Shown here: piece after piece, positions 15,337 to 55,516 of the stretch
How positions within the stretch are numbered: the stretch's first letter is position 1
How the letters are laid out: every line of letters starts with the position of its first letter
Source of the DNA: an uncultured Phycisphaeraceae bacterium
GTDB taxonomy: Bacteria; Planctomycetota; Phycisphaerae; UBA1845
Assembly (NCBI GenBank): GCA_964648365.1
Contig: CAZYLK010000001.1
Coordinates: forward strand, 762-64,761
Direction of reading: 5' to 3'
DNA length: 64,000 bases
The notes under the pieces: generated by a model
The model's database searches: none
What the model was told of the DNA's origin: nothing
Seen by the model: only the letters and a program-made list of their open reading frames with translations
Made by a program: the position numbers and the translations under genes

Positions 15337-15367
15337 CGCATCACAGTCCACCAGCAGGATGCCGGAG

Positions 15368-15489: not shown

Positions 15490-15494
15490 GGGGG

Positions 15495-21049: not shown

Positions 21050-21469
21050 TTATTCGAACTCCTCGCAGTGCCACACGCCGCCTTCAGGACGGGGGTATGT
21101 GCAACTGTCGCGCTTGACGCAGGTGGCGCACAGCCCGCGAGCCCGCGATTCGGCGCCGAGTTCGAGCTGCGACGCCGCGATCGGCTCCGACCGCCGCATG
21201 GCGACCGGCGCCTGAATGCCGTCGAACTCGTCACAGAAGATCACCGGCCGGACGGCGCCGAGTCGATAGGTACAGGTCCGCGCCAGCGTGCAGCTTATGC
21301 ACAAGCCGCGCGGCACGTCCGGTTCGGGTCGCGTGCTACGGCGCTCCTCGGACGCGGCCGGCGACGTGGACGGGGCCGGTGCGGCGGGCGCCGTCTCCCG
21401 CGGGCGATCCGCCGGGCTGACCCGTTTCCGGTGGATGACAGTCGTTGCTTGAGTCTTCGGGTCGTACAT
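21050..21469 (-). CDS. Small protein with two copies of a 4-Cys motif (GLCxxCxxxxxCTY...C[DE]EF[DE]), function unknown
   Basis: 139-aa ORF. The two copies are RGLCISCTLARTCTYRLGAVRPVIFCDEFD and RGLCATCVKRDSCTYPRPEGGVWHCEEFE. GGAGG lies 7 nt before the ATG. Confidence 0.6.
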   Translation of the reverse strand: MYDPKTQATTVIHRKRVSPADRPRETAPAAPAPSTSPAASEERRSTRPEPDVPRGLCISCTLARTCTYRLGAVRPVIFCDEFDGIQAPVAMRRSEPIAASQLELGAESRARGLCATCVKRDSCTYPRPEGGVWHCEEFE

Positions 21470-21470
21470 C

Positions 21471-21560
21471 GCACACCTCCAGGTCGATCCTCATGGATCA
21501 TCCGACGGTCTCGAATCGCAACATCGACGGCCGTCAACGGTAAATGGGCAGGAGGTGTGC
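21471..21560 (-). promoter_or_regulatory. Possible SD-sequestering stem in the 5' leader of the Cys-rich gene
   Basis: Perfect 10-nt inverted repeat: gcacacctcc (21471-21480) and ggaggtgtgc (21551-21560). In mRNA sense the upstream arm GCACACCTCC can pair with the GGAGGTGTGC that contains the RBS. Confidence 0.3.
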
Positions 21561-21834
21561 CGGGGGAAGGGGTGATAAACGCATCCGTGCCGCGAACGGC
21601 GGCAGGCGGGTTAACGCCTTGAATTGAAGCAGGTTACGAGCGCGCGCCCGTTTGCGATGCTGCGCGAGACTGCGATGCCGAATGGCTGGGAAGGCGGGGC
21701 GAAATGTACCGGCGGGGAGTAGCGCACCGCGCGGCGTTCGCGCGATGGCTCAGCGGATCAGGTCGACTTCTAACGGCCGGCCCGTACCCGTCCTCGCGTG
21801 GAACCTCGCTACCCGTCCGCGGCCGACCGCTGCC

Positions 21835-22248
21835 TCATGACAGAGCAGACGCCGTTGGTACGAAGCTCGTCACCGCGGCGATCTCCTGCGCGATCGACTT
21901 CTGCGCCGGCTTGTCGCCGGGCCAGCCGGATACATCGGCGTGGTTCGGGTTGCCCTCGATGGGCGCCGCTCTGACAACGAGTTGATGCTTCAAGCAGACA
22001 GCGGTACGAAAGTCGCCCCGCCCATAGAGGGTCCTGCCTCTCGCCCCGGCGATTTGCTGTCCTACCGACCAAACTTCGGCGTCGGTCGCGAGGATGTGCC
22101 GGGTAACGGACAGATCCGTGTGAGGATGGGGGATGAACGCATCGGGCTTCAGGGTCTGATCGCTGCCGCGAATGTGGCTTCGCTGAAGGACGTATCGCGC
22201 CAACAACTCATCGCTTCCCACATCAGGTACGTTCGCCGGGTCGATCAT
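21835..22248 (-). CDS. Hypothetical protein, third gene of overlapping three-gene cassette
   Basis: The start ATG 22248 overlaps the upstream stop (ATGA). The 137-aa sequence runs MIDPANVPDVGSDELLARYVLQRSHIR...NPNHADVSGWPGDKPAQKSIAQEIA. I cannot name a family. Confidence 0.6.
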   Translation of the reverse strand: MIDPANVPDVGSDELLARYVLQRSHIRGSDQTLKPDAFIPHPHTDLSVTRHILATDAEVWSVGQQIAGARGRTLYGRGDFRTAVCLKHQLVVRAAPIEGNPNHADVSGWPGDKPAQKSIAQEIAAVTSFVPTASALS

Positions 22249-22697
22249 GCGGCGTAGACCCTCTGGATCAACTCGATGATCTCTGTGGGAACGTCGCCAA
22301 AGAAGACTTGTGTCCCGTAGACTCGATTGGGTCCGATCAACGCGGCGAAGTGCAGTTCGTCGTCGGGACTGACGCTCACGGACAGCGTTCGGCGGGCCGA
22401 CCGATGCCACTCAAATGTAATCTCGCCGTCCGGCTCGGCGCCGACTGAGGGAGCGGGATAGCCAAGCGGGAATGATTCGAGGAAGAGATACGCATTTCGC
22501 AACGCGCAGGGCGCGACGGGAAGCGCATCGTGGCCATCCCAGTTCGGCTCGCGACATTCCTCCCAGACGGTCCCCAACTCATCTCGGAGTGCGCTCGCGA
22601 TGCCGAACACGTTTGACGTGTGTAGTTCACGGCGACTGAGCCGCGTGGAATCCTCAACGTACTGCGCCGCGTCACTGAATCCACAAGTATATATCAT
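22245..22697 (-). CDS. Hypothetical protein, second gene of three-gene cassette
   Basis: 150-aa ORF with ATGA overlaps at both ends. It contains EPNWDGHDALPV and PDGEITFEW segments. I cannot name a family. Confidence 0.6.
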   Translation of the reverse strand: MIYTCGFSDAAQYVEDSTRLSRRELHTSNVFGIASALRDELGTVWEECREPNWDGHDALPVAPCALRNAYLFLESFPLGYPAPSVGAEPDGEITFEWHRSARRTLSVSVSPDDELHFAALIGPNRVYGTQVFFGDVPTEIIELIQRVYAA

Positions 22698-23455
22698 TGC
22701 TTCTGTCGCTTGAACGAGTTAATCGCCGCTTTGCTCATGAGGCTGAAGAACGCCTTGTTCTTGAACCATCTCATCTTGGGCAGTAGCTCCTGTAGGATAC
22801 CATCGTCCGGCGGAAATCCACGCGTCGTGAACACATCGATGTCAACGATCAGTCCGACTCCGCCACTTCCTGGAGGGACCGGTGGTTGGATCGCCTGCAC
22901 AACCTTGATTCGCAGGGGCTCATTCGGAATGTCGTGCAGACTCTGATACAAGAAACTGCTTAGCGGCAGTCCCAAGGGCTCCAGGCACTGTGGCGGCGAC
23001 GCGAGACTGCGAGCCACCGCAGGCAGCTCGATCGGGAGGACGCGATTGATGAACCTTACGCCGAGCCTCTGGATCTCGGTAGGTTGGGCCAACTCCAAGA
23101 AGACCCGCCAGACGCGCTGGCCTTCTGCGGCGAAAGCGTCCCAGCGCTCGTAGGGCGTCAGTCGGCTGAATGCCACGCCGTCCCGTGTAAACTGGACGAT
23201 CTGCCGGCCATCCTCCGAGGTCAGCCGAAGTCCGTGCCCGGTATCGCGCCGAAGAACCGTCGAAGCAGACTCGCCTTCTAGCTGTGCCTGGAACTCGAGG
23301 TAATGCTGGGGTTGGCACTTAGGATACTCCGGAAGGCGCCGAGTGAGTAGTTCCTGTAGTTCGTGCGGCTGCAGCGATCTCGCCGCCCTCGCTCGCCAGT
23401 GAATAACGGCCTCGACTATCGGCGCGGCGGTCAGATTGGGAAAGGTCTCAGCCAT
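22694..23455 (-). CDS. TIGR04255-like uncharacterised protein, first gene of three-gene cassette
   Basis: MAETFPNLTAAPIVEAVIHWRARA..., Y.RW.AF and RLGVRFINRV segments resemble the TIGR04255 family pattern. This rests on recollection, not a search. The start was set to ATG 23455. Confidence 0.55.
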   Translation of the reverse strand: MAETFPNLTAAPIVEAVIHWRARAARSLQPHELQELLTRRLPEYPKCQPQHYLEFQAQLEGESASTVLRRDTGHGLRLTSEDGRQIVQFTRDGVAFSRLTPYERWDAFAAEGQRVWRVFLELAQPTEIQRLGVRFINRVLPIELPAVARSLASPPQCLEPLGLPLSSFLYQSLHDIPNEPLRIKVVQAIQPPVPPGSGGVGLIVDIDVFTTRGFPPDDGILQELLPKMRWFKNKAFFSLMSKAAINSFKRQKQ

Positions 23456-23662
23456 GTCGAGTTTGAACTTCGGAACTCGCGAACGCGAGGTACGGCCGGC
23501 CGTGCTCGCCCCCACCGTTCGTGTCCGGCGCCTGTCCCCTGCCGCCTGTCGTGCCGGGCGCTTCCCCATCGTCGATTCTCTACTGGCCATCGTCGTATCA
23601 TAGCCTTATCGGGAACTCCGCTCCAACGCGCTGACCGCGTCATCGATCAGGCGCGCTTCCAG

Positions 23663-25009
23663 TCAGTCCCCGCCCTCCTCCACCGCCTTCAGCTTCTCCC
23701 GCAGCGTCTTGCGGTCGATGCCGAGCAGTTCGGCGGCGCGGGTCTTGTTGCCCTGCACAGCGTCGAGGACGAAGCGGATGTGGTTCATCTCGACTTCGGC
23801 CAGCGTGGTGATCTCGCGCGGCGGGCCGGCGGCGGAGAAGCGCATCAGCGCGGGCAGGTCGCTGACGTCGATCGTGTCCGAGTCGGCCATGACCACCAGC
23901 CGGTGGACGACGTTTTCCAGTTCGCGCACGTTGCCCGGCCAGTTGTGGCCGCGCAGGGCTTCGATGGCCGCGGGCGTGAACTGCGGCACGGGCTTGTCCT
24001 GCTGCCGGGCGAAGCCGGCCGCGAACCGGTGCAGCAGCGCCAGCACGTCGTCACCGCGCTCGCGCAGCGGCGGCAGTTCGAGCGTGACGATGTTGAGGCG
24101 GAAGAAGAGGTCGTCGCGGAAGAGGCCCTTTTTCACCAGGGTTGCCAGGTCTTTGTTGGTGGCGGCGATGATGCGGACGTCCACCTCGCGCGGCCGGGCG
24201 GCGCCGACCATCTGCACCTGCCGGTCCTCGATGACGCGCAGCAGCTTGGCCTGCATCGGCATGGTCAGCTCGGCGATCTCGTCGAGGAAAATCGTGCCGT
24301 GATCGGCGGTGATGAAAAAGCCCGCCCGCGTGGTGACCGCGCCGGTGAACGCGCCCTTCACGTGTCCGAACAGTTCGCTTTCGACCAATCCGTCCGGAAT
24401 GCCGGCGCAGTTGACGGGCACGAAGGGCGCGGCCGCGCGTGCGCCGTGATAGTGAATCGCCCGCGACACCAGTTCCTTGCCGGTGCCGCTCTCGCCGGTC
24501 ACCAGGACGGTCGCATCGGCCGCGGCCGCCTTGGCGATGGCGCGAAACACCTTGCGCATGACGGGCGAGTCGCCGACGATGCCGAACTGCTCGCCGAGGG
24601 CGTGGTCGAAATCAGCCAGCGCCGCCCGCCGCAGACGGACCTTCTCCAGGGCGCTGCCCACGGCCGCCAGCAACTCCTCGTCCGTAAATGGCTTGGACAG
24701 ATAATCCTCGGCGCCCTCTTTGACCGCGGACACGGCGCTGTCGATCGAGGCATAGCCGGTGATCATGATGACGGCGGTGAACTCGAAATGGGCGCGGACG
24801 TGGCGGATCAGGTCCAGCCCGGTTGCCTTCGGCATGCGCAGATCCGTGATGACCAGGTCGATCGGCATGGTCTCGAGCATGCGCACCGCTTCCGCCACGC
24901 CGCTGGTGGCAAAGACGGTGTAGCCGCGCGTCGACAGCGTCCGCTGCAAGACCTCGCGGGCGTCTGCCGAGTCATCCACCACCAGGATGCGTTCGCCGCG
25001 GTCCGTCAT
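23663..25009 (-). CDS. Sigma-54-dependent response regulator (NtrC family: REC + AAA+ + Fis-HTH)
   Basis: REC domain (ILVVDD...[10 protein letters not shown]). Walker [15 protein letters not shown] loop (HVKGAFTGA). C-terminal [22 protein letters not shown]. Confidence 0.92.
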
Positions 25010-30232: not shown

Positions 30233-31693
30233 ATGCCTATGATCGCCTCACGAGCCGAGCTCTTCGCGGTGCTGCGCCAGTTCAACCCCTGGTGGCGGGG
30301 GCGGCGATTCCCGGACCTCCCGGACTGGCACCGGGCGGCGCTTCGGCAGATTTTAGCGTGGGCCGACGAACCGCCGGGTGGGCGTGCGCTCCTGCTCTCC
30401 GGTGCCCGCCAGGTCGGCAAGACGACGCTTTTCCTCCAAGCGATCGACCACCTGCTCGAGCATGACGTCCCACCCGCGAACGTGCTCTATGCCACGTTTG
30501 ATCATCCTCTGTTGAAGCTGGCCGGGTTGGAGGCCGTGATGCGGCTTTGGCGTGAGTATGAGCCGGCGCAGCCGGGCGCGGAATTCCTGTTCCTGGACGA
30601 GATCCAGATGACCAAGGACTGGCAGACCTGGATCAAGCACCAGGTTGACTTTGCCAAGGGACGTCGCGTCGCCGTGACCGGCTCGGCGACGCCGCTGGTT
30701 CGCGAGGGCCAGGAGTCGGGCGTCGGGCGATGGCAGACGATTCGTCTGGCAACGCTTTCGTTCTACGAGTATCTCCAACTGAATAAGCTACAGATCCCCG
30801 AACTGCCCGAGGGTCGATCACTACGCGAGATGTTCGGATGGAGTCCGCCGCAATTGGCTCAGCTTGCCGAAGACGCCCGGCCGCTGACCGCCCACTTCCA
30901 TGAATACCTCCTTCGCGGCGGCTTCCCGCAGACGGCGCTCAAGCGGAGCATCCCGGAGGCTCAGAAGCTGATGCGTGAGGACATCGTCGACAAGGTGCTC
31001 AAGCGCGACATGACTGCCCTGTTCGGCGTGCGGCGTATTCTCGAACTGGAGCAATTGTTTCTGTACCTGTGCCTGCATGACGGGGGTCAGCTTGACGTCG
31101 CCGAACTTTGCTCCGCGCTGGAGATGAAGCGCCCCACCGTCAACAGCTTTCTCGACCTTCTTGAGGCAACGCACCTCGTGTATCGCCTGAGGCCGTTCGG
31201 TTACGGCAAGCAGGTGCTGCGCGGGCGTCCGAAGTTCTACCTGGCGGACGCCGCCATCGCGCCGGGGGTGATGCTGAAAGGCAAGAGTCTTCTTGAGGAC
31301 GCGCCCGCACTCGGACGCGCCGTGGAGACGGCCTTCTTCAAGCACGTCTTCACTCGCTACTACACGCAGAGCATCGGCTTCTCCTATTGGCGTGGAAAGC
31401 ATGGCCACGAGGTAGACATCATCGCCGATGTCGAGGGTGAGCTGGTTCCGTTTGAGATCAAGTACAGAGAGCGTACGCACACGGGCACCGCCGAACTGAA
31501 GGGGATCGTCGAGTTCTGCCAAGCCCGCGGCGTCGAACGCGGCTACGTGATCACGCGCGACCCGACCGATTTTTCAGTTCACGACGTTGACCACGATGCT
31601 GGTCGCACAAGGCTGCTGACGATCCCCGCGCCGCTGGCGTGCTTCTGGTTGGGGCGATCGGAGTTGTCGGGGCCGGCAGTTGACAGTGCGTGA
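30233..31693 (+). CDS. AAA ATPase of the DUF4143 / COG1373 type
   Basis: FNPWWRG N-terminal motif, Walker A GARQVGKTT and Walker B FLFLDEIQ. The C-terminal GHEVDII...FEIKY is a restriction-endonuclease-like segment. Confidence 0.8.
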   Translation: MPMIASRAELFAVLRQFNPWWRGRRFPDLPDWHRAALRQILAWADEPPGGRALLLSGARQVGKTTLFLQAIDHLLEHDVPPANVLYATFDHPLLKLAGLEAVMRLWREYEPAQPGAEFLFLDEIQMTKDWQTWIKHQVDFAKGRRVAVTGSATPLVREGQESGVGRWQTIRLATLSFYEYLQLNKLQIPELPEGRSLREMFGWSPPQLAQLAEDARPLTAHFHEYLLRGGFPQTALKRSIPEAQKLMREDIVDKVLKRDMTALFGVRRILELEQLFLYLCLHDGGQLDVAELCSALEMKRPTVNSFLDLLEATHLVYRLRPFGYGKQVLRGRPKFYLADAAIAPGVMLKGKSLLEDAPALGRAVETAFFKHVFTRYYTQSIGFSYWRGKHGHEVDIIADVEGELVPFEIKYRERTHTGTAELKGIVEFCQARGVERGYVITRDPTDFSVHDVDHDAGRTRLLTIPAPLACFWLGRSELSGPAVDSA

Positions 31694-31707
31694 CGTGAGT
31701 TCGCTGC

Positions 31708-32973
31708 TCAACTCCGGACCGCCATCGATCGCGCCGCGCGCAGGTCGTCGTGCTCGAACGCAGTTGCCATACGTTCGATCTGACTGGCCGTAAGACCGAG
31801 TCCGGCAGCTACTTCGCGCCAGCGCCCGACGGCGTGCCCGACTTCGCCGGTGACCGACCGAGCCTCGACCGGCGGCAGCTCGAAGTACGATGCAACACTC
31901 AACGCGAGCTCCAACGAGGCCGTGCAGTCTTCCGTGTCAATGGCGGTCGTCAGAATGCGCGGCTTGACGTCGACCGGCACCGGATTCAGATCATAAGCGG
32001 GGGACAGTTTCCAGCCGTTCTGTCCCTCGTACAGGAAGCCATGATTGCGAAGATGATCGTCACAGTTGGAGATCAGCACGCTGAACACGATCCGCCGCCA
32101 GACGGCCTGCATGTCCTCTCTGGGTGTCGCGCCGTACTGCCGCAGTGCATCGGCGAACTCCAGGTAACTCCGTGTTTCTCCATCGGCCGCGCCAAGCATG
32201 CTCATCGCGGACAGGAACGGGATCCTTCCCTGTCCGGAGCGGTCAAACCGGGTGAGCAGCAGCACGACCCTGCCCGCGGCCACTTCGATGCGCCAATCCG
32301 GAACCCAAATGCCTGCCATTCCCGCCAGGCTCAGGGCTACCGCTTCCCATCGCACCGTGTCATAGTCGTCGTCCTTGTGCGGGAATTTGGCGATCGCCAG
32401 TCGGCCGTCTTTGTCACGCACGGACGCCTTCGGCCGTGCGCCGCCCAGCGACGACCCCGGAGCGAGCAGGAGGCGCAGATCCTCGTCAGTGTCCGACTCT
32501 GCGCCGACCCGCTCGGCAGCAGACAGCAACTTCGGCAGATCGACGAGCGGCGGAATGGGGGTTGCATCACCCGCCGCGAGGGACGGGCCACCGGGCTCCA
32601 GCGCGAAGCGCAGGGCGCCCTGTCGCGCCGCGTCACTGACCATCAGGAGGTAGTCGATCTCCCGCAACGACCGTGGCGTCGTCCCGGTACGTTCCGCACG
32701 GCGTCGCTCAGCGCGCCGCATCAGCACGCGTCCCCACCGATCCGGCGCAGAATCTCCGAGCGCGCCGAACATGACCCTGTCGGCCGCAGTGTGAAACGGA
32801 CCGGGGCCGAGCTGCAGAGCAGGCTCCAGCGCGAAGCGTTCCGGATGCTTCAGCCACGCTGCGTCGTACTCGAAGCTCGCGCTTTCACGGCCCTTACGCG
32901 TGCGCGCCCACAGACGGCCCACCGGCACCGCCTCCCCGCCCAGATCAACGTAAACAAGGGCTTCCGTGTCCAT
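31708..32973 (-). CDS. hipA: HipA-family toxin kinase
   Basis: 421-aa ORF with the N-terminal coupling domain (LVYVDLGGEAVPVGRLW) and kinase core (GGARPKASV..., DDHLRNHGFL). It is preceded by an XRE gene. Confidence 0.85.
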   Translation of the reverse strand: MDTEALVYVDLGGEAVPVGRLWARTRKGRESASFEYDAAWLKHPERFALEPALQLGPGPFHTAADRVMFGALGDSAPDRWGRVLMRRAERRRAERTGTTPRSLREIDYLLMVSDAARQGALRFALEPGGPSLAAGDATPIPPLVDLPKLLSAAERVGAESDTDEDLRLLLAPGSSLGGARPKASVRDKDGRLAIAKFPHKDDDYDTVRWEAVALSLAGMAGIWVPDWRIEVAAGRVVLLLTRFDRSGQGRIPFLSAMSMLGAADGETRSYLEFADALRQYGATPREDMQAVWRRIVFSVLISNCDDHLRNHGFLYEGQNGWKLSPAYDLNPVPVDVKPRILTTAIDTEDCTASLELALSVASYFELPPVEARSVTGEVGHAVGRWREVAAGLGLTASQIERMATAFEHDDLRAARSMAVRS

Positions 32974-32981
32974 CAGCGTCC

Positions 32982-33311
32982 CTAGGTCTCGCCGGAAGGG
33001 CCGGACGTGCGTTTCGTCCGCCGACGAATCCGCTGCGGCAGGCGCTCCTCGTCCAGTTCCAGCCCGACCGAATCGGTCGTCACGTCGGCAAGTGTGGCCA
33101 GTCGATCCGACAGACCCAGGACGAACAGCACCGTGGCGTAATTGCCCAGCGAAACGCCGGGATGGCCCTTTTCAATCTTGCTGAGCGTCGTCCGGCTGAT
33201 CGACGCACGCTCCGCCATCACCGACGTGGCGATCCGCCGTCGCAGCCGAGCGTCGCGGATATCCCGGCCCAGCCTGTGGAGGGCTTGCTTGACCGGGATG
33301 GGCAGCTTCAT
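32982..33311 (-). CDS. hipB: HipB-like XRE antitoxin/repressor
   Basis: HTH MAERASISRTTLSKIEKG. It lies 9 nt upstream of hipA. The start was set to ATG 33311. Confidence 0.8.
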   Translation of the reverse strand: MKLPIPVKQALHRLGRDIRDARLRRRIATSVMAERASISRTTLSKIEKGHPGVSLGNYATVLFVLGLSDRLATLADVTTDSVGLELDEERLPQRIRRRTKRTSGPSGET

Positions 33312-33368
33312 GTCGCGTCGGTGTGCGTCCATTCTGTAGCGTCCATGAATGCGCTCGTAATTGGTTGT

Positions 33369-33397
33369 AATGTATGCTATAATGGACGTAAAGTCAA
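33369..33397 (-). promoter_or_regulatory. Candidate sigma-70-type promoter for hipBA (TTGACT-17 nt-TACATT on minus strand) with flanking GCGTCCAT repeats
   Basis: agtcaa at 33392-33397 and aatgta at 33369-33374 on the plus strand. GCGTCCAT or its complement occurs at about 33326, 33339 and 33382, making these possible HipB operators. Confidence 0.3.
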
Positions 33398-33607
33398 GAC
33401 GCTCGCGTCCGGCGCGTTCGACGAGTTATCGGGCCAGCCAGCTTCGCGCGCGATAGCCAGCCCTATTCCAGCTCTGGTTCAGTGTTCAGTCGGGTGCCGT
33501 TGACGCGCCCTGCAGCAGTCCCGCACGGTTGAGGATCGCCGGCTCCCGTACGGCTCGACACGCCGATTCGGAGGACTCGTGCCGGACTTTCTTGAGGTGA
33601 TTCCGCG

Positions 33608-33850
33608 CTACGTTGGCTTCCGCCGCTCGGAGGGCTTCCCGTTGCCAACCCCGATCGACGCGACGAGCAACAGGTCGATGACCTTCGCAGACTCGTCGGA
33701 CACCGCGACGTAGATGGTCCGACTGGCTCTGGGCGGATACCAGAGGAACTCTGGATGCGGCACGCTTACCTCATCGCCGTTGGCCAACTGCAGCTTGAAC
33801 GGCTGAAACGGCTCCGCCCGGTGAACTTCGCGCAGTTGGTCGATTGTCAC
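33608..33850 (-). CDS. Small hypothetical protein (80 aa)
   Basis: ORF with a GTG start. The sequence MTIDQLREVHRAEPFQPFKLQLANGDEVSVPHPEFL has protein-like composition. I cannot name a family. Confidence 0.45.
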   Translation of the reverse strand: MTIDQLREVHRAEPFQPFKLQLANGDEVSVPHPEFLWYPPRASRTIYVAVSDESAKVIDLLLVASIGVGNGKPSERRKPT

Positions 33851-33896: not shown

Positions 33897-33937
33897 CATT
33901 CGACATTCGCCATTCGCCATTCGCCATTCGCCATTCA
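33897..33937. repeat. Family B octamer array 2 nt downstream of rpoD stop
   Basis: The plus strand reads cattcgacattcgccattcgccattcgccattcgccattca. The minus sense reads GAATGGCG units. Confidence 0.9.
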
Positions 33938-38046: not shown

Positions 38047-38880
38047 ATGAGAAACTGGGTTAAGTCGTGCGCGGCCCTCGTGGTGGCCGCGGGTCTGGTT
38101 CAGGTCGCGCTGGCCGGAGGCTCGACGCAGGTGCCCGCCGGATATCCCGGATCGGACTACGTGGGCTTCGAGTCCGTCCAGGGCCCGCAGGCGTCGGGCT
38201 GTCTTGAACTGGACATGAACCTGGGCCGCGGGGCCTACTCGAACATCGGCGAGACGGACCGCAGCGTCGCGGTGGACATCAACAGCCAGGTCAGCGTCAA
38301 CGCGATGGGAATCGTGTACCAGTCGGGCGCCGATCACGATCTCCTCTGCATCATCCGCGAGGTGAACGGCAACGTCCGCGGGAACGAACTGGCCCGTGAG
38401 CAGATCTTCGTGCCGGCCGGCGGGGGGATGGAGTATCACGACGTGCCGATCAACTTCACCTTTCAGCCCGGCACCCGCTACGACATCGCCTTCCAGGCTG
38501 TGCCCGACTGGGGCTTCAATGTTCACAGCATGGAGCTTCTGAACTTCAACAACCCGAACCTGGACCCGAACCAGGGGTTTGACGTGGGTCCGTTCAAGGT
38601 GCTGGACGGCGGCGCCGACCGGGCGAGCGGCTACTCGAACTTTCTGATGCCTCGAGTGCAGGTCTGCGAAGGCGGCGCCGGCTGCGTCTACACGATCAAG
38701 AAGAGCGCCGGCAAGAAGGGCTGCCAGACCTGTCCGGAGCGGGGCGCGGATCTGCGTACGCAGATCGAGTGCGAGGACGTCAACGACTGCGACAAGAAGG
38801 TTAAGACCCGCCTGTCCTGCCCGGGCGGCGGGAACGGATTCTGCAAGGTGAAGGGCAAGCGCTCGTCCTGCGGCGGGTGA
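38047..38880 (+). CDS. Secreted protein of unknown function with C-terminal 8-Cys domain
   Basis: Signal peptide MRNWVKSCAALVVAAGLVQVALA. C-terminal tail CVYTIKKSAGKKGCQTCP...CDKKVK...CKVKGKRSSCGG, paralogous to the tails at 17245-17451 and 63759-63960. Confidence 0.7.
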   Translation: MRNWVKSCAALVVAAGLVQVALAGGSTQVPAGYPGSDYVGFESVQGPQASGCLELDMNLGRGAYSNIGETDRSVAVDINSQVSVNAMGIVYQSGADHDLLCIIREVNGNVRGNELAREQIFVPAGGGMEYHDVPINFTFQPGTRYDIAFQAVPDWGFNVHSMELLNFNNPNLDPNQGFDVGPFKVLDGGADRASGYSNFLMPRVQVCEGGAGCVYTIKKSAGKKGCQTCPERGADLRTQIECEDVNDCDKKVKTRLSCPGGGNGFCKVKGKRSSCGG

Positions 38881-39442: not shown

Positions 39443-40201
39443 ATGATTCTCGGCAAGTTCTGGCATGTGGTGATGGCGCAGATCAACAAACTGGCCAACA
39501 TTTTCTGGACGGCCGATCCCATCGCTCAGATGCAATACGAGTACGACCAGGCAGTCGCCCAGATGAAGGAAGGCCGCGAGGGATTAGAGCAGTACCGCGC
39601 CCTGGTGGAACGGGTCAGCCGTCAGGTCGCGACGACGAAGCGGCACGTCGCCAACCTGGAGGCCAAGGTCAAAGCCTACCTGCAAGCCGGCGATCGCGAG
39701 ACGGCCGCCAAGTTCGCGCTGGAACTTCAGAAGGCCCGGGCGGAACTCGTCGAGAACGAAGAGCAGCTCACGCTGCACGAGACGGCCTACAACAACAACC
39801 TGACCAAGATCAAGCACGCTACCGGCAAGCTGGCCAAGGTACGTGAGAAGATCCAGAAGTACGACGCCGAACTGAAGATGAGCAAGGCCGAGGGTGAGAT
39901 GGCCAAGCTGGCTCAGTCGTTCAACTTCGACGTGACGACGGACTTCGGCGCCATCGAATCGGTCATTCAGGACAAGATCAGCCTCAACCGGGCCAAGGCG
40001 CGGGTCGCATCGGATCTTTCCAGCGAAGGCATTGTGGACGTGCAGCGCGAGCAGGCGATGGAACAGGCCATGGCCGATCAGGCCCTGCGCGAGTTCGAGA
40101 TGGACCTCGGGCTGGTGACGCCGGAGACGTCGTCTGTTGCCGATGAGACAAAGCAGCTTGGACCGGCCGTGACCGAGGCGAATACGCAGACGCAGGGGTG
40201 A
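39443..40201 (+). CDS. pspA: PspA/IM30 (Vipp1) family protein
   Basis: 252 aa, MILGKFWHVVMAQINKLANIFWTADPIAQMQYEYDQAV... with long coiled coil typical of PspA/IM30. The start was set to ATG 39443. Confidence 0.85.
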   Translation: MILGKFWHVVMAQINKLANIFWTADPIAQMQYEYDQAVAQMKEGREGLEQYRALVERVSRQVATTKRHVANLEAKVKAYLQAGDRETAAKFALELQKARAELVENEEQLTLHETAYNNNLTKIKHATGKLAKVREKIQKYDAELKMSKAEGEMAKLAQSFNFDVTTDFGAIESVIQDKISLNRAKARVASDLSSEGIVDVQREQAMEQAMADQALREFEMDLGLVTPETSSVADETKQLGPAVTEANTQTQG

Positions 40202-40560
40202 GGAAGAAGGGAGTAAGGGAGTGAGGGAGTAAGGGAGTAAGGGAAGAGGAACGATGCAACATTGTTCTACATCGCGCGGTTCTGCCGGCTCGCGAATCGC
40301 TTCCCCATCGCACCTGAAACAGCGTGCGCGATCACGCGCCAGCGCCGAGCCGCGGGCTTCAGCCCGCGCGATCCCCCCGGAAGTGAAGCGGCTACGAATC
40401 GCGCACTGTGATTTAGAAGAAGGCACCTCGGAAAAAGGACTGAGTCGGATGCGGAAACGTCGGGATGTCAGATTCGACGTGCCATCCGCTCTTCCCTTAC
40501 TCCCTCACTCCCTTACTCCCTCACTCCCTTCTTCGGGAACTCCCTCACTCCCTCCTTCCG
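40201..40560. repeat. Intergenic repeat complex: family A array forward (about 40209-40250), H4 hairpin (40347-40371), family A array reverse complement (40490-40560)
   Basis: The forward array reads gggagtaagggagtgagggagtaagggagtaagggaag. The hairpin reads gagccgcgggcttcagcccgcgcga. The reverse array reads cttcccttactccctcactcccttactccctcactcccttcttcgggaactccctcactccctccttcc. Confidence 0.9.
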
Positions 40561-40571
40561 AGGAGTCCTAA

Positions 40572-42473
40572 GTGGAACGCTCTACGACGCCGGTCGCACC
40601 CAGCACGCTGCCCGACTGGTATCCCGCCTGGGCGCGGGAGCTGGCGAATCTTTATTTCTCCGGCACGACCTGCGTCTTTCTGCTGCACGGCAATGTACAC
40701 GATCTGGTTCGGGTCGAGGCCGGCGGGCGCATTGAGCATACGAACGTACTCGATTTTCTCGCGTCGCAGATCTTCGGCTCTTGGGACGTGGTGCTGCAAT
40801 ACGACCTGGCGGCCGGCACGCGGCCCAAGGCCGGCAGCGACCAGAAGCGCCTCCGAGATATGGTTGCGTATCTGACTGCCCGGCTGGGCGACATGGGGCA
40901 GTGGACGCGCGAAGCGGGCAAAAACCTGCTGCTCTTTGACAAGCTGCTGGAACGCAACCTGGTCGAAGACAAGCCGGCCGAGCGGCGCAGCATCGCGCTG
41001 CTGTTCGATTACGCCCAATATCTGGTTCCGGCGGGGGGGGCCGGGATGATGAGCGCCGCGGCCGGGGCAAACCTCGTGCGGCTGCTGAGTTGGGCGCAAA
41101 GTCCCTACCTGAAGAAGGTCAACGTCGCCATCTGCCTGGTGGCCGACAAACTGGCCGAGATCAACGATCGGCTCGTGCAAAGCCCGCACGTGGCGACGGT
41201 CGAGATTCCGATGCCCGATACCGAGGCGCGGCGGCGGTTTATCGAGTCGGAGCACGTCGAGATCGCCGCCGGGCGATGCGGATTGTGCGGAGCGACCGCC
41301 GAAGGCAGCGGTCCAGACCGCGCGGCAGAGGGCGGCGCCGCCGCCGGGGGGGGCGGTGCGGAGGCCGCCGGGCGTCACGCTGGCGATCACGGTCAGGGCG
41401 GCCATGACCATGACGGCCACGACGCCGCGGAACTGGCCGAAATGTCGAACGGCCTCAGCCTGATAAACCTGAACGTGATCCTCTCCCGCGCACGTCAGAA
41501 GGGTGGCCCGATCGACGCGTCCGGCTTCCGCCGGGCCAAGAAGGATCTGATCGAGCGGCAATGCGAGGGGCTGCTCGAGTTCATCACGCCCAAGCACACG
41601 CTGGACATGGTGGTCGGGCTGGAGGCCGCCAAGAGCCGGCTGCGGGCCGATGGCGACCTGCTGACCCGCGGCCACCTCGACGCCGCCCCCATGGGATACC
41701 TGGTCAGCGGACCGGTCGGCACCGGCAAGACGTTTCTGGCTGAGTGCTACGCCGGCTCGATCGGCGTGCCGTGCGTCAAGCTGCGGAACTTCCGCTCCAA
41801 GTACGTGGGCGAAACCGAAGGGAATCTCGAGCACGTGCTGACCGTGCTGCGGTCGCTGGGTCCGGTGGTGGTCATCATCGACGAGGCGGACGCGGCCCTC
41901 GGTGATCGCGATAACTCCGGCGATTCCGGCACGTCGAGCCGCGTCTTCTCGATGATCGCCAGCCAGATGGGCGACACGCGCTACCGCGGACGGATCGTGT
42001 GGATGTTGCTGACCTGCCGACCCGACCTGCTGCCGATCGACCTGAAGCGCCAGGGGCGGGCGGAGGTTCACATTCCGCTGTTCTATCCGCAGAGCGACGC
42101 AGAACTGGCGGAAATGATCCAGGTCATGGCCCGCAAGAACCGCATCGGGTTCGAACGGCCCATCGAAGCCGCGGCCATGCCCCACCGCGAGATGAGCGGG
42201 GCGGACATCGAGAGCGTGCTGGTGCTGGCGCGGCGGTGTGCACTGACCGACGGCCGCGAGAAAGTTCGGCCGGAAGACGTGGAGGCGGCCCTGGCGGATT
42301 TCATCCCGTCGGTGCAGGGGCTGGAAAAGGAGATGCAGGAACTCGCGGCCGTGCTGGAGTGTACGCAACTGAGTTTCCTGACGCCGGCCTGGCGTGAGAA
42401 GGTGGAAAAACCAGACGGCCGCACCCGCTTGCAGGAGCGGATGGTCGCGATCCGACAGTTGATTGAGCAGTGA
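40572..42473 (+). CDS. AAA+ ATPase, classical clade C-terminal module with large N-terminal region (possibly a degenerate AAA-like domain)
   Basis: The GTG start is preceded by AGGAG. Walker A GPVGTGKTF, Walker B VVIIDEAD, and SRH-like TCRPDLLPIDLKRQGRAEVHIPLFYP. There is an internal Gly/His/Asp-rich insertion. Confidence 0.8.
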   Translation: MERSTTPVAPSTLPDWYPAWARELANLYFSGTTCVFLLHGNVHDLVRVEAGGRIEHTNVLDFLASQIFGSWDVVLQYDLAAGTRPKAGSDQKRLRDMVAYLTARLGDMGQWTREAGKNLLLFDKLLERNLVEDKPAERRSIALLFDYAQYLVPAGGAGMMSAAAGANLVRLLSWAQSPYLKKVNVAICLVADKLAEINDRLVQSPHVATVEIPMPDTEARRRFIESEHVEIAAGRCGLCGATAEGSGPDRAAEGGAAAGGGGAEAAGRHAGDHGQGGHDHDGHDAAELAEMSNGLSLINLNVILSRARQKGGPIDASGFRRAKKDLIERQCEGLLEFITPKHTLDMVVGLEAAKSRLRADGDLLTRGHLDAAPMGYLVSGPVGTGKTFLAECYAGSIGVPCVKLRNFRSKYVGETEGNLEHVLTVLRSLGPVVVIIDEADAALGDRDNSGDSGTSSRVFSMIASQMGDTRYRGRIVWMLLTCRPDLLPIDLKRQGRAEVHIPLFYPQSDAELAEMIQVMARKNRIGFERPIEAAAMPHREMSGADIESVLVLARRCALTDGREKVRPEDVEAALADFIPSVQGLEKEMQELAAVLECTQLSFLTPAWREKVEKPDGRTRLQERMVAIRQLIEQ

Positions 42474-42489
42474 TCTGGTGTGGCACCAT

Positions 42490-42512
42490 GTGGCACCGGT
42501 TTTCAACCGGTG
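42490..42512. repeat. H1 hairpin just downstream of AAA ATPase stop
   Basis: gtggcaccggttttcaaccggtg, preceded by a partial gtggcacc. Confidence 0.9.
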
Positions 42513-42693
42513 AGCTCTGGAGCCGGTCTGAGGCCGGCGCCACGCGATCAGCACCGTCCGCGCCGGGCGGATCGGGGAGCGGCCGCACCGGAGTACCTGG
42601 TTCGGCGCAGCCAGCACAGTGATCCCAGCGACGACCGCGTCCGGTCGCCGCGGCCGAAATATCGACCGACTCGAAACACGAAGGATTTTTCGC

Positions 42694-43290
42694 ATGGCCA
42701 GAAAGAAAAAAGTCGCGAAAAAGAAGGCAAGCAAGAAGCGAGCCGCCGGTGGCTCCGGGAAGAAGGCCGCCAGGCGCCCGGCCGCAAAGAAGCGCGGCTC
42801 TGCGAAGAAGAAAGGCGCCGCCCGGAAAACTGCCGGCAGCGGCAAGAAGGCAGCCGGCAAGAAGAAGAGCACGGGCAAAAAGGCCGCCGCGCGGGGGACG
42901 GCCGGCGCTGGCGGGAAGAAGTCGAAGCGCGGCGCGAAGCCCGCATCTCGAAAGGGAACATCCACGCGGCGGGCGGCTGCTCCCGGCCGCAGCTTCCACG
43001 ACCGCCCGTCAAGCTGGCTCGACGCCAACGCGGACGTGCCCGTGATCGAACAGGCGGCCCGAACCATGACGACGTTCATGGAGGCGATGGCCGACGGCGT
43101 CATCGACGATGGCGAAGTGCAGGCGCAGGAGCGGCGGCTGGTGGCGCTGATGAAGGAGATCGAGCCGCAACTTGACGACGAACTGCACGCATCGGTCACG
43201 AAACTGCTGGCCGAACTGACCGCGTACGACCTGATGCAGGTGCTGTGCGCCATGCACAAGGCCCGCGGTCAGACGACGTTTCAGGGGTGA
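42694..43290 (+). CDS. Histone H1-like Lys/Ala/Gly-rich protein with helical acidic C-terminal domain
   Basis: MARKKKVAKKKASKKRAAGGSGKKAARRPAAKKRG... continues for about 110 aa. Next comes EAMADGVIDDGEVQAQERRLVALMKEIEPQLDDEL, a TerB-like ADG..D..E pattern that is tentative. Confidence 0.65.
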   Translation: MARKKKVAKKKASKKRAAGGSGKKAARRPAAKKRGSAKKKGAARKTAGSGKKAAGKKKSTGKKAAARGTAGAGGKKSKRGAKPASRKGTSTRRAAAPGRSFHDRPSSWLDANADVPVIEQAARTMTTFMEAMADGVIDDGEVQAQERRLVALMKEIEPQLDDELHASVTKLLAELTAYDLMQVLCAMHKARGQTTFQG

Positions 43291-43472
43291 CGTGGGGCGG
43301 TGGCCGCGGTCGCGCGGGTTTGGCGCTGCCTGCTTCGGAAGGGCTCTGTGCGGCCGTCGGTGCAGCGCCATCCTTCCCCAGAGATGGGCGCCGCGGAGTG
43401 CCAGGAGGCGAGCGAAGGAGCAGACCGGGCGACGCGCCTGCCGTCGACTCGCGAGGACAGGAGGTGACTTGA

Positions 43473-44279
43473 ATGAGGTCGGCGACCGGACAATCTCGAC
43501 AACTCGCACGGCTGTGTTCGCTGGGCGTCGTCTCGATCGCGGCGCTCATCATGTTCTTTCCAAGTTGCGACCGTGACTCGTCGTCATCGACCGGAGGTCG
43601 GTCCCCGTCGCGCCAGTCGGGCAAGCGCGTCAGCGCCGGCCCAATCGACCTGCCCCAGGCGGACCAGCGGCTGTGCACGGGTGTCGTGCTGCTGGTGGAC
43701 ACGTCGGGCAGCATGAACCAGAAGGTGCGCGATCGCGGCGGCGCGGAACAGCCCAAGCACGTGATCGCTCGAGCGGCGATCGACCGGATCGTGGCGTATA
43801 CCGATCAGTGGCAAACGCAGCATCCCGACCGCGTGCTGCACCTCGGCGTGCTCAATTTCAGCAGCTCCGCCCATACGGTCATGCCGCTGGCGGCGTTTGA
43901 CGCTGCCACGGCCGCGGAGGCCGCGACGCGCATACCGGCGCCGGGCGGAGGAACCGCCATCGGCTCAGCCCTGCAGGAAGGCTTCAAGGCGCTCTATGCC
44001 TCCGGCTGCGTGCGGAAGTACGTCGTCTGCATCACCGACGGCGAGAACACGTCCGGCCCGCCGCCCGACCGGGTCGCCCGCGCGCTGCACGGCCAGACGG
44101 AAGGCGACGTCGAGATCCACTTTGTTGCATTCGACACGTCGCCCGCTAAGTTCGCATTCCTGTCGAAGGTCAACGGCTACGTCGTCGAGGCGGCGGACGG
44201 GGCGCAGCTCGACGCGCGGCTGGCCGATATCTATGAGAAACGGATCCTGGCGGAGGCGATGACGCTCGAAAAGGAATAG
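43473..44279 (+). CDS. von Willebrand factor A (vWA) domain lipoprotein
   Basis: RBS AGGAGGTG. Lipobox-like MFFPSC. MIDAS motif LVDTSGSM. GGGTAIGSAL and ITDGENTSG segments. Confidence 0.85.
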   Translation: MRSATGQSRQLARLCSLGVVSIAALIMFFPSCDRDSSSSTGGRSPSRQSGKRVSAGPIDLPQADQRLCTGVVLLVDTSGSMNQKVRDRGGAEQPKHVIARAAIDRIVAYTDQWQTQHPDRVLHLGVLNFSSSAHTVMPLAAFDAATAAEAATRIPAPGGGTAIGSALQEGFKALYASGCVRKYVVCITDGENTSGPPPDRVARALHGQTEGDVEIHFVAFDTSPAKFAFLSKVNGYVVEAADGAQLDARLADIYEKRILAEAMTLEKE

Positions 44280-44563
44280 CGAATGTCGAATAGCGAATAA
44301 CGAATGAAGCTCGCGCCGGTGCAGCGATCCTTCAGAACGGGGAGCGTAAACGACCGGCTGCGGAGGAATGTCGAATGTCGAATGAAGAGCAAATCGGAGC
44401 GGAGCGGCGCTATCCGGGCCGGAGCCGGAGACCACTGACAGAGGAAATGGGGATCGAGAATGGAGCCGTCTGACGCTGGAGCAGCATGTTCGTCTTCTCT
44501 GCATTCGACATTCGACATTCGCCATTCGACATTGAACCTTAGCCATTCGCCATTCGACATTCC
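44275..44563. repeat. Family B octamer arrays: forward 44275-44309 and 44366-44387, reverse complement 44502-44562
   Basis: The forward arrays read aatagcgaatgtcgaatagcgaataacgaatgaag and gaatgtcgaatgtcgaatgaag. The reverse array reads cattcgacattcgacattcgccattcgacatt..agccattcgccattcgacattcc. The vWA stop TAG (44277-44279) lies in the first unit. Confidence 0.9.
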
Positions 44564-46376: not shown

Positions 46377-46385
46377 ACCTCTGGC

Positions 46386-46576
46386 GTGGCACCGGTTCCG
46401 GTGTGGCACCGGTTTCCAACCGGTGAGTCCGGTGTGGCACCGGTTTGCAACCGGTGAGTCTGATGTGGCACCGGTTTGCAACCGGTGGATCACCTTCCGG
46501 GGTCTGATGCAGGGTTACGCGCACTGGTTGCAAACCAGTGCCACAATTGAAGACACCGGTTGAAAACCGGTGCCAC
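46386..46576. repeat. H1 hairpin array (one partial and three full forward copies, two reverse copies) between SBP gene and permease gene
   Basis: Forward copies gtggcaccggtttSCaaccggtg lie at 46403, 46434 and 46465 with a 31-bp period. Reverse copies are cactggttgcaaaccagtgccac at 46522 and caccggttgaaaaccggtgccac at 46554. Confidence 0.9.
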
Positions 46577-48616: not shown

Positions 48617-49504
48617 ATGCGCCGCCCGGCCGGAAAACTCGGCACCTATCTGAAGGCAGCGTTCACCCACCACTGGAACCTGCTGGCCTTTTTCGGTGCG
48701 CTGGGTTTTTCCCTGCTCAGCGGCATGCCGGACGTGCTGATCCCTCTGGTGGTGGCCGGCGAGATGGTCTATGTGGGCGGGCTGGCCGCGCATCCGAAGT
48801 TCCAGGCCTACATCGACGCCCAGGCGGCCAAGGCGGTCCGGCAGGACGGCTCGTCCCGCTCGCAGCAGATGCTCAATACCATGCTGCGCCGGCTCCCGCC
48901 GCGCACGATTGACCGGTTCGAGACGCTGCGCAACCGCTGCCTGGAACTGCGACAACTCGCCCTGGAACTGAAAGACCCCGGCCACACCGGCGGCGCGCGC
49001 CCGCTCGACGACATGCAGATGTCCGGCCTGGACCGGCTGCTGTGGATCTACCTGCGGTTGCTGTTTACCGAGCATTCGCTGGAGCGCTTCCAGGAGCGCA
49101 CCCACCCGTCGCAGGTCGAAGCGGACATCGAGGCGCTGGAGGCCCAGCTTTCCGACAGCGCGTCGATCGCCGACGACATTCAGCGGCAGAAGGTTCAGCG
49201 CACCCTTCAGGACAACCTCCAGACCTGCCGCGACCGGCTCGCCAACCTGCAGAAAGCCCGTGACAACCTCACGGTGGTCAAGCTCGAACTCGACCGGCTG
49301 GAAAACAAAATCCGCGCCTTAAGCGAACTGCCCCTCAACCGCCAGGAGCCCGACTACATCACTGCCCAGGTGGACGCGGTGGCATCGAGCATGGTGCAGA
49401 CCGAGCAGACGATGAACGAACTGCAATTCGCCACCGGCCTGGAAACGGCCGACGAAGCCGTGCCGCCGCTGATGAGCCGGCCGGTGGCGATGATGCAGGA
49501 ATAG
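48617..49504 (+). CDS. Hypothetical membrane protein with two N-terminal TM helices and long coiled coil
   Basis: 295-aa ORF 6 nt after the ABC ATPase gene. It has WNLLAFFGALGFSLLSGMPDVLIPLVVAGEMVYVGGL followed by Q/L/E-rich heptads. Confidence 0.6.
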   Translation: MRRPAGKLGTYLKAAFTHHWNLLAFFGALGFSLLSGMPDVLIPLVVAGEMVYVGGLAAHPKFQAYIDAQAAKAVRQDGSSRSQQMLNTMLRRLPPRTIDRFETLRNRCLELRQLALELKDPGHTGGARPLDDMQMSGLDRLLWIYLRLLFTEHSLERFQERTHPSQVEADIEALEAQLSDSASIADDIQRQKVQRTLQDNLQTCRDRLANLQKARDNLTVVKLELDRLENKIRALSELPLNRQEPDYITAQVDAVASSMVQTEQTMNELQFATGLETADEAVPPLMSRPVAMMQE

Positions 49505-49534
49505 CGAATAGCGAATGGCGAATAACGAATGAAG
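49500..49534. repeat. Family B octamer array spanning a stop codon and the argH start codon
   Basis: aatagcgaatagcgaatggcgaataacgaatgaag. The TAG at 49502-49504 ends the upstream gene, and the ATG at 49529-49531 (unit GAATGAAG) starts argH. Confidence 0.9.
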
Positions 49535-50890
49535 AAAGGCGATTCCCAACCCACTCCGTCGCGCCTCTGGGACAAGGGCGACGCGCTCGATCGGTTGATC
49601 CATGCATTTACCGTCGGTGACGATCCGCAGGTGGACCTTCACCTGGTGTACTGGGACTGCCTCGGCTCGGCCGCACATGCGCGGACGCTGGAGAAGGCCG
49701 GCGTGCTCACGAGCGAGGAGTGCGCCGGGCTGATCGCCGGGCTTGCCGAAATCGCACGGCTTGCGTCGGAGGGCCGATTCGAGATTCCGCTCGAACTGGA
49801 AGATTGTCACACGGCCATCGAGGCGCACCTCACGACAACCGCAGGCGAGGCGGGGCAGAAGATTCACACGGGGCGCTCGCGCAACGACCAGGTCGCGACC
49901 GCGATGCGGCTCTACATGCGCCATCACGCGCTGCGGTGGATGGAACTGCTCGACCGGTTTGCGTGTGCCTGCCTGGAGCGGGCGCGGCGCGACGGCGACG
50001 TGCCGATGCCGGGGTATACGCATCTGCAACCGGCGATGCCGTCGAGCGTCGGGTTGTGGCTGGCGGCGTGGGCAGAGGCTGCCGTCGAGCACATGGCATC
50101 CGGGCTGGATCTGCTCCATCGCCTCGACCGCTGCCCGCTGGGGACCGGGGCCGGCTTCGGGATATCGCTGCCGCTGGATCGCCAATGGACGGCGGAGTTG
50201 CTCGGCTTTTCGAAGATTCAGCGCAATCCGATCGACGTGCAAAACAGCCGCGGGCGGTTCGAGACGTATTTCCTGCGCGTTGGCGTGGACGTTGCGGGAA
50301 TGCTAGAGAAGCTGGCCGTGGATCTGGTGCTGTTTGCGACGCGCGAGTTCGGTTTCGTCAAGCTGCCGGTCGAGATGACCACCGGTTCGTCCATCATGCC
50401 GCAGAAGCGCAATCCGGACGTGGTGGAACTGGTCCGCGGCCACGCGGGCGTGGTTCGCGGGCGGCTGGCGCAGCTCGAATGGGTCTGCGCGAAGTTGCCG
50501 TCGAGCTATCACCGCGACCTGCAATTGACCAAGGCGCCGGTCGTGGCTGGGGTGCAAGACGTGGATGCCATGCTGACCGTCATGACGCGCGTCGTGGACG
50601 GCCTCGCTTTTGACGCACAGCGGCTGCGTGCCGCGATGTCCGACGAACTGTACGCGGCAGATGCGGCCTACGCCCTGGTGCGCCAGGGCGTGCCGTTTCG
50701 CGAGGCGTATCGCCGCGTCGGCGCCGACATCGCTGGTGGCGCGTTTTCGGCCCCGGATGGGGCGGGCCATTCAGCCGGAAGCGTTCAGCCGCAGGCGCTG
50801 GGAGATCTCAACGAAGAACGCGCACGGCTGCTGGCCGCCGCGGAGGCGTTCCGCGGGCGGGAGCGGACGTGCAGTGCGTTGTTGAAATAG
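49529..50890 (+). CDS. argH: Argininosuccinate lyase
   Basis: Fumarate-lyase signature TGSSIMPQKRNPDVVEL and an N-terminus LWDKG...FTVGDD typical of ArgH. Confidence 0.92.
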   Translation: MKKGDSQPTPSRLWDKGDALDRLIHAFTVGDDPQVDLHLVYWDCLGSAAHARTLEKAGVLTSEECAGLIAGLAEIARLASEGRFEIPLELEDCHTAIEAHLTTTAGEAGQKIHTGRSRNDQVATAMRLYMRHHALRWMELLDRFACACLERARRDGDVPMPGYTHLQPAMPSSVGLWLAAWAEAAVEHMASGLDLLHRLDRCPLGTGAGFGISLPLDRQWTAELLGFSKIQRNPIDVQNSRGRFETYFLRVGVDVAGMLEKLAVDLVLFATREFGFVKLPVEMTTGSSIMPQKRNPDVVELVRGHAGVVRGRLAQLEWVCAKLPSSYHRDLQLTKAPVVAGVQDVDAMLTVMTRVVDGLAFDAQRLRAAMSDELYAADAAYALVRQGVPFREAYRRVGADIAGGAFSAPDGAGHSAGSVQPQALGDLNEERARLLAAAEAFRGRERTCSALLK

Positions 50891-55497: not shown

Positions 55498-55516
55498 CCG
55501 GGGGATGGAATGCTGT

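Follow-up and report, generated by a model that had tools for sequence, protein, structure and literature searches.

A lysine-rich eight-cysteine domain at the C-termini of exported Phycisphaerales proteins: a candidate docking module and counterpart of the GC-type dockerin

Introduction

Three otherwise unrelated proteins encoded in one 64,000-nt stretch of DNA from an uncultured Phycisphaeraceae bacterium (positions 762 to 64,761 of contig CAZYLK010000001.1, assembly GCA_964648365.1; this whole stretch is called the window below) end in a common segment of about 65 residues that is rich in lysine and holds eight cysteines. What is this domain, and what does it do for the proteins that carry it? 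The display and retention of exported proteins in Planctomycetota, especially in Phycisphaerae, are little known, and the envelope of these bacteria has been debated for decades. A preliminary description of the window had pointed out the shared segment, did not recognise in it a named family and likened its placement to that of C-terminal sorting or anchoring domains. Here we describe the domain as a family, compare the modules that occupy its place in homologous proteins, and weigh the roles that it may have.

Results and discussion

Three copies of the domain in the window

The copy at 38680-38880 (+) has 66 residues followed by a stop codon, with the translation GCVYTIKKSAGKKGCQTCPERGADLRTQIECEDVNDCDKKVKTRLSCPGGGNGFCKVKGKRSSCGG, and closes the gene 38047-38880 (+), whose product is an exported protein of 277 residues identical to the public protein P0002. 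Another copy, 68 residues and a stop codon (RCVYSLKHASKARGGCDACPARGDRFASDTRCEQIAECDKKLKLRKIDCPDGGAGACRKVRGVRESCG; 17245-17451, -), forms the C-terminus of an M43 (pappalysin-type) zinc metallopeptidase of 416 residues with a signal peptide (17245-18495, -; Pfam PF05572, E=2.4e-17), identical to P0121. The remaining copy, 64 residues and a stop codon (SRCTYTIKKSKAKGGCDLCPPKGGAYRSEARCEDVKDCDKKIKTTIGCPQGNGTCKIKGKRSDC; 63759-63953, -), belongs to a partial gene at the right edge (63759-64000, -), which runs past the end of the window and of which 79 residues are visible.

All eight cysteines line up in the alignment of the three copies, and 25 columns are invariant. When the two full-length carriers were compared by BLASTP, the last 76 residues aligned alone, with 46% identity (E=7e-17). 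A hidden Markov model (HMM) built from the three copies and run against the six-frame translation of the window recovered these three alone, with E-values of 1.4e-36 (277-residue protein), 1.2e-34 (M43 peptidase) and 4.1e-36 (right-edge gene); the next match had E=0.88. Judged by these sequence comparisons, the similarity of the three C-termini is far above chance, and the claim that unrelated secreted proteins share the domain is borne out by translation, alignment, BLASTP and HMM alike. The spacing pattern given in the preliminary description fits overall; the M43 copy departs from it in two spacers, with five residues instead of three or four separating CDKKLK from CP and a single additional residue following the seventh cysteine.

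The 277-residue protein consists of a signal peptide (MRNWVKSCAALVVAAGLVQVALA, nt 38047-38115), a passenger of about 185 residues, a Gly-rich linker and the eight-cysteine domain; its passenger has no family match in Pfam or NCBIfam. The M43 peptidase has the signal peptide MKTPSRTILSLSLLVAAASPVATAFA. According to the gene calls in public collections, 38047 (MRNWVK...) and 18495 (MKTPSR...) are probably the true starts, and a signal-peptide heuristic found classic signal peptides from both. The two complete carriers of the window are thus predicted to be secreted, as had been supposed.

An undescribed family of portable modules

The HMM of the three copies was searched with HMMER against 1.84 billion cluster representatives and gave 114 matches, 74 of them below 1e-10. 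Three of the 114 are CBM_14 repeat proteins (P0087, P0112 and P0113) that score about 7 bits per repeat. The other matches, about 110, appear from their sequences to be genuine clusters of the eight-cysteine family. A word-indexed protein search returned one match (P0001) with the three-copy alignment (A1) and none with an alignment of 104 family sequences (A2), the first of which is the window domain at 38680-38880. Since the exhaustive HMMER search found 114 matches where the word index found none or one, such an index seems ill-suited to a Lys-rich domain of low complexity.

No match to the domain was found in Pfam-A or NCBIfam r20, even at permissive thresholds of E<=1-10 (eight diverse members were tested against Pfam), and the PDB sequence search returned nothing. 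A Foldseek search of the AlphaFold2 model against PDB and BFVD gave a best E-value of 0.45, and no description of such a domain turned up in the published literature. The initial impression that the motif lies outside the named families has therefore held, and by these searches the domain is a previously undescribed family without a detectable relative in sequence or fold.

Members of the family are modular in a regular way. Exactly eight cysteines are present in 93 of 112 domain segments, and zero to two residues follow the last cysteine in 91 of them. The domain lies within five residues of the C-terminus in about 95% of members, so the view that it is always at the extreme C-terminus is correct for the window copies and fails for the family: in the remaining 5% or so (P0065, P0086, P0102, P0108 and P0078) it is internal or close to the N-terminus, in some cases directly behind the signal peptide, and other repeats of extracellular type come after it. 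The proteins with internal copies are still exported, and none of the non-terminal copies points to a cytoplasmic protein. Such internal copies in exported proteins speak for a portable binding module rather than for a signal that has to be terminal and is cleaved off.

Among the passengers, BLAST clustering distinguished at least 43 unrelated groups, most of them without a Pfam family; the few that Pfam recognises include WD40, DUF4394 and DUF6923 beta-propellers. A clear Sec signal peptide was found in 75 of the 102 members that start with methionine, and most of the remainder look fragmentary, which extends the expectation of secretion from the window to the family. At each of the two positions that precede the first cysteine, glycine is the commonest residue, and these glycines read as a flexible linker. 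The hydropathy of the domain is low throughout: the 15-residue Kyte-Doolittle maximum has a median of 0.11 and reaches 1.04 at the highest, with no hydrophobic stretch in any member.

Predicted fold, charge and cysteine pairing

AlphaFold2 run on the 104-sequence alignment gave a model with a predicted local distance difference test score (pLDDT) of 88 and a predicted template modelling score (pTM) of 0.67. The model has strands at residues 4-15, 27-33, 43-49 and 57-67 and a short helical turn at 37-39, so that the domain is confidently predicted to be a four-stranded beta module. In the column statistics, cysteines C2-C7 never vary, C1 and C8 occur in 99% of sequences each and Y7 in 97%, while P22, G25 and G56 are nearly invariant.

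The other conserved feature is charge. Twelve positions (10, 11, 13, 15, 24, 42, 43, 45, 59, 61, 63 and 64) hold lysine or arginine at 73-95%, and these basic positions alternate along strands 1, 3 and 4. The net charge of the domain has a median of +7 and a range of -1 to +20. The description of the domain as Lys-rich is well founded: the ratio K/(K+R) is 0.75 in the domain but falls to 0.31 in the attached passengers and to 0.26 in 31 genes of the window. The M43 passenger of the window, for instance, has 2 lysines and 28 arginines.

In several members, cysteines have been lost or gained in pairs. P0057 has jointly lost C1 and C7 and kept the other six cysteines, and four members (P0080, P0101, P0103 and P0106) have jointly gained two, the first of which follows C3 while the second stands two residues ahead of C8. 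Together with the export of the carriers, these paired changes favour disulfides over free thiols. The secondary structure of the model and the cysteine losses and gains suggest a C1-C7 bond, with strands beta2 and beta4 as antiparallel neighbours. The same considerations would place two clusters of four cysteines at opposite ends of the sheet, with a face lined by lysines.

Exchange of C-terminal modules among M43 peptidases

When the M43 passenger was searched alone, 5,946 homologues were found, and the best 120 were compared. Apart from the window protein itself, these are 52-66% identical to it, and those sequences among them that bear a taxon name come mostly from metagenome-assembled genomes (MAGs) of Phycisphaerales or Planctomycetota. 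The eight-cysteine domain occurs in only one of the best 120, the window protein P0121, and is absent from the other 119. Instead, 64 of the 120 end in an acidic tail of about 65 residues with the pattern C...D-x-D-G...F-F-D...GC(P). Both tails of this type that were scanned passed the cut-off (29 bits) of NF041540, 'GC-type dockerin domain-anchored protein', P0127 with 57.4 and P0169 with 29.5 bits. A different dockerin-like variant, outside the 64 and below the NF041540 cut-off, was seen in P0131 and P0204; the remaining homologues have choice-of-anchor J, cysteine-rich acidic repeats or other tails.

The two modules sit at the same junction. The first cysteine follows the end motif of the catalytic domain by 7-9 residues in 45 of the 50 GC tails in which the motif was located, and by 9 residues in the window protein. 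They also agree in a length of about 65-67 residues, in having one cysteine near their start and one shortly before the protein ends, and in their occurrence in Phycisphaerales or Planctomycetota. In other respects they differ: the GC-type tails have two dockerin-like repeats, two cysteines and an acidic, D-rich composition, whereas the eight-cysteine domain is basic, Lys-rich and predicted to be all-beta. The NF041540 profile matched none of the three window proteins, and hhalign of the eight-cysteine family against the 64 GC-dockerin-type tails gave a probability of 0.15%; on these sequence profiles the two are unrelated. The strongest evidence that the eight-cysteine domain does an anchoring job of the dockerin type is this occupation of one slot, in homologous enzymes, by modules that are not homologous. 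One may speculate that the acidic dockerin and the basic module have different partners, or that both bind the same anionic partner, the former through Ca2+ bridges and the latter directly.

The M43 family of Planctomycetota (P0122-P0240) is highly varied in its C-terminal modules, which include several unannotated types of about 110-150 residues (e.g. ...TNAVDLTLGF and ...QLWFRDP...), and is a good test bed for the swapping of anchor modules.

Distribution and genomic context

The eight members with an NCBI name (P0003, P0006, P0008, P0009, P0014, P0025, P0047 and P0065) come from one Phycisphaerales MAG with C4547_ locus tags; other members are from unannotated MAG or metagenome contigs, with a marine sediment assembly among the sources. 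A scan of genome contigs returned one locus (L001), on QZJT01000139.1 of Phycisphaerales bacterium SURF_32, and a scan of metagenomes returned two short loci (L005 and L006). The open reading frame L001:4062-5195 encodes a protein of 377 residues with a signal peptide, whose C-terminus shares about 89% identity with the visible part (79 residues) of the right-edge gene of the window. SURF_32 is the MAG with the C4547_ tags (GCA_003597935.1); it has at least 13 carriers, and its contig QZJT01000039.1 has five of them inside 8 kb. Four of these five form a tandem array (L007, 12930-17721) of genes for 215-252 residues, each ending in the eight-cysteine domain, 2 kb downstream of the fifth carrier, P0008. 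The array shows that carriers can expand by local duplication besides being dispersed.

In the window itself, three carriers are dispersed over 64 kb, in surroundings of housekeeping genes. Among the neighbours are cytochrome bc, hypCDEFAB, infA and gdh genes and a sigma-54 two-component system, and further rpoD, dnaG, pspA, an ABC transporter, argH, an addA-like gene, putA and etfBA. Several peptidases, of families M28, M10 and M16, occur close to carriers, but not consistently.

Proposed role and alternatives

We propose that the eight-cysteine domain, as a polycationic module stapled by disulfides, docks or anchors the exported proteins of a lineage of Phycisphaerales and is a functional alternative to the GC-type dockerin, an account that we favour at slightly better than even confidence. 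In this proposal, a lineage of Phycisphaerales (Planctomycetota) would equip many unrelated Sec-exported proteins with a self-folding module of about 65 residues, joined on by a Gly-rich linker. After export, oxidative folding would staple the four-stranded module with four disulfides, and lysines conserved in rows, at alternating positions of the strands, would give it a polycationic surface. By means of this surface the passenger would be bound to an anionic partner, either on the cell surface or within the matrix, and be retained rather than released; candidate partners are lipopolysaccharide, an acidic or sulfated exopolysaccharide, and an acidic receptor protein. The module would fill the role played in sister lineages by the unrelated acidic GC-type dockerin. 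The likeness to C-terminal sorting or anchoring domains that was seen from the outset has gained substance, with its many paralogues in a single MAG, its varied passenger families and its place in the GC-type dockerin slot.

A precedent for such a role is the type I dockerin of cellulosomes (PF00404), which docks to cohesin. It too is a mostly C-terminal module of about 70 residues, borne by many secreted proteins per organism and serving in surface docking. The eight-cysteine domain differs from it in having no Pfam match and no Ca-binding EF-hand-like repeats, no partner resembling cohesin was found, and its carriers are not carbohydrate-active enzymes (CAZymes).

Several points weigh against the docking proposal. 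The family is known from sequences and a predicted model alone, and its binding partner is putative; deduction, and not a set of model coordinates, supplied the disulfide map, the strand order and the idea of a single cationic face. No recurrent neighbour family was seen around the carriers in the window or at four other loci (L001, L003, L007 and L008), so that gene context points to no receptor. For the GC-type dockerin, too, anchoring is a role assigned at the level of annotation, through its NCBIfam name, and no literature on this domain was found; nor did any relevant work on the surface or secretome of Phycisphaerae turn up. No GC-type dockerin was detected in the window and the SURF_32 loci (about 116 kb scanned), which fits replacement and coexistence of the two modules in this lineage alike. 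Finally, the placement at the extreme C-terminus in about 95% of members is equally expected of a sorting signal that is recognised and processed.

That last possibility is the main rival to the docking module. The domain would then be a true sorting or secretion signal, a folded C-terminal tag like the C-terminal domain of the type IX secretion system (T9SS; Por_Secre_tail, TIGR04183), recognised by an outer-membrane machine and then cleaved or exchanged for a covalent anchor. Besides its position, with few residues after the last cysteine, the domain shares with the T9SS tail and with the tripartite signals (LPXTG, PEP-CTERM and MYXO-CTERM) many paralogues per genome, diverse passengers and signal peptides. 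The criteria of Haft for tripartite signals include the extreme C-terminus, a transmembrane segment followed by a mostly-Arg basic cluster, and a co-occurring sorting enzyme (10.1101/2023.06.07.544157); paralogy, passengers and signal peptides, taken with the position, account for three of his criteria. However, the domain has no transmembrane helix or other hydrophobic segment, as the low Kyte-Doolittle values show, and no terminal Arg cluster: its basic residues are lysines distributed among three strands, and the last two residues are C-G. It is not tripartite, and no model of the T9SS tail or of a sorting signal in Pfam or NCBIfam matches it. A search for a co-occurring processing or sorting gene, which covered the window and the flanks of five other carrier loci, turned up no candidate of the sortase, exosortase, CPBP or rhomboid kind. 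The internal and N-terminal copies in exported proteins (P0065, P0086, P0102 and P0108) do not suit a terminal signal, and the equivalent of the domain in the M43 homologues is a binding module of dockerin type. A processed signal is thus unlikely, although it deserves the most serious attention among the alternatives.

Cysteine spacing raises another candidate, namely a carbohydrate-binding module remotely related to CBM14 (peritrophin-A/tachycitin type, PF01607), which would target chitin or another polysaccharide and not the cell. CBM14 is likewise a small disulfide-rich extracellular module, and the three-sequence HMM had weakly matched the CBM_14 repeat proteins P0087, P0112 and P0113. 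In hhalign against 16 CBM14 repeats, the family scored a probability of 86.8% (P=4.3e-6) over 33 columns, with C3-C6 falling on C1-C4 of CBM14 through the common spacing CP..G...C-x5-C-x9-CPxG. But the HMM matches, at some 7 bits per repeat, are driven by this very spacing; Pfam CBM_14 matched none of eight domain sequences at E<=10, and the Foldseek comparison with PDB gave nothing better than E=0.45. The eight-cysteine domain is moreover polycationic, has eight cysteines rather than six, and does not conserve the typical aromatics, Y7 excepted. The joint loss of C1 and C7 in P0057 contradicts the CBM14 disulfide map, in which C6 would pair with C7, and no carrier has a CAZyme domain; we consider the relation improbable. 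The eight cysteines could also form two Zn(Cys)4 sites of the zinc ribbon or knuckle kind, making the domain metal-dependent or metal-binding, as the knuckle-like GC-x-x-CP-x-x-G motif at C2/C3 and the deduced strand order, which would put four cysteines at each end of the sheet, might suggest. We hold this to be very improbable, given that the carriers are Sec-exported, that there is a single CxxC pair (C2-x2-C3), and that the paired loss in P0057 and the paired gain in four members are disulfide-like behaviour. Size, disulfide richness, the beta-sheet and a median charge of +7 would also be compatible with a cationic, defensin-like antimicrobial or membrane-active effector delivered with its passenger. 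This idea is hardly credible in view of the 43 or more unrelated passenger families, beta-propellers and a peptidase among them, the dockerin that occupies the slot in homologues, and the lack of both immunity-like neighbour genes near the carriers and matches to defensin or toxin families.

A relation to the YTV proteins of Planctomycetales was considered because the domain starts with C-x-Y-T-[ILV], and was rejected: at E<=10, Pfam YTV matched none of eight diverse sequences. Phycisphaerae belong to the early-branching lineages, in the sense in which that term is used for the distribution of YTV proteins. These are cysteine-rich exported envelope proteins, reported from cell-wall preparations and only from Planctomycetales, being absent in early-branching lineages (PMC8567305). 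They are repeat proteins, whereas the eight-cysteine domain is a single, mostly terminal module on otherwise unrelated proteins.

A bolder extension of the docking proposal is that the eight-cysteine poly-Lys module and the GC-type dockerin are interchangeable tags of a planctomycetal surface-display system with a dedicated receptor, and that the lysines are covalently cross-linked, by isopeptide or peptidoglycan-type bonds, to an envelope polymer. The preference for lysine over arginine in a genome of 66% G+C could mean that chemistry, and not charge alone, is at work. We regard this as a long shot; if true, it would mean that bacteria with an outer membrane have a new way of anchoring exported proteins covalently.

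Even as a candidate docking module, the tag marks out a group of exported proteins, which may be surface-associated, in uncultured Phycisphaerales of subsurface and sediment. Most of the group are proteins of unknown function; beta-propellers and a peptidase also belong to it. The apparent swapping of anchoring modules between lineages in homologous enzymes, from acidic GC-type dockerin to basic eight-cysteine domain, makes the search for a receptor or polymer tractable by comparative genomics. A compact, putatively disulfide-stapled polycationic beta module may also serve as a polyanion-binding tag. The family deserves a Pfam or NCBIfam model, through which about 110 clusters of 'hypothetical proteins' would gain an informative annotation.

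Other features of the window

A run of hydrogenase maturation genes at 9679-16537 (-) comprises an AIR-synthase-type gene, probably hypE, followed by hypD, hypC, hypF, hypB and hypA. Hydrogenase structural genes were not found in the window; a cytochrome b/Rieske cluster lies upstream at 681-4246. The GC3-based gene call (GC3, G+C at third codon positions) gave no confident gene at 21083-23663, 31693-33608 and 42473-43473.

Short tandem repeats of two kinds occur at or near gene ends throughout the window. They have either an 8-nt unit, AAGGGAGT / GGGAGTAA (reverse complement TCCCTCAC), or a 7-nt unit, CATTCGC / GAATAGC. Their sites are 571-606, 8801-8838, 12256-12302, 40194-40251 and 40493-40561, and in addition 9644-9675, 10860-10891, 33897-33936, 44266-44306, 44502-44562 and 49499-49542. 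These repeats may be lineage-specific intergenic elements, for example terminator or promoter spacers.

A palindromic repeat of 30-31 nt with the core CACCGGTTTGCAACCGGTG is present in 2.9 intergenic copies at 46397-46487; a repeat with a 31-nt period at 15384-15489 has another sequence. ARAGORN called a tRNA-Gly(TCC) at 46380-46464 (+), wholly inside the 31-nt palindromic array; the hairpins of the repeat have probably given rise to a spurious call. Inside putA (55481-58606, +), the palindromic repeat recurs at 55820-55993 in 5.8 in-frame copies, which separate the PutA_N domain from Pro_dh and are translated as six decapeptide repeats, DHRLQTGAT[SPG]. From its sequence the palindromic repeat looks like a repetitive extragenic palindromic (REP)-like element that has expanded inside a coding linker.

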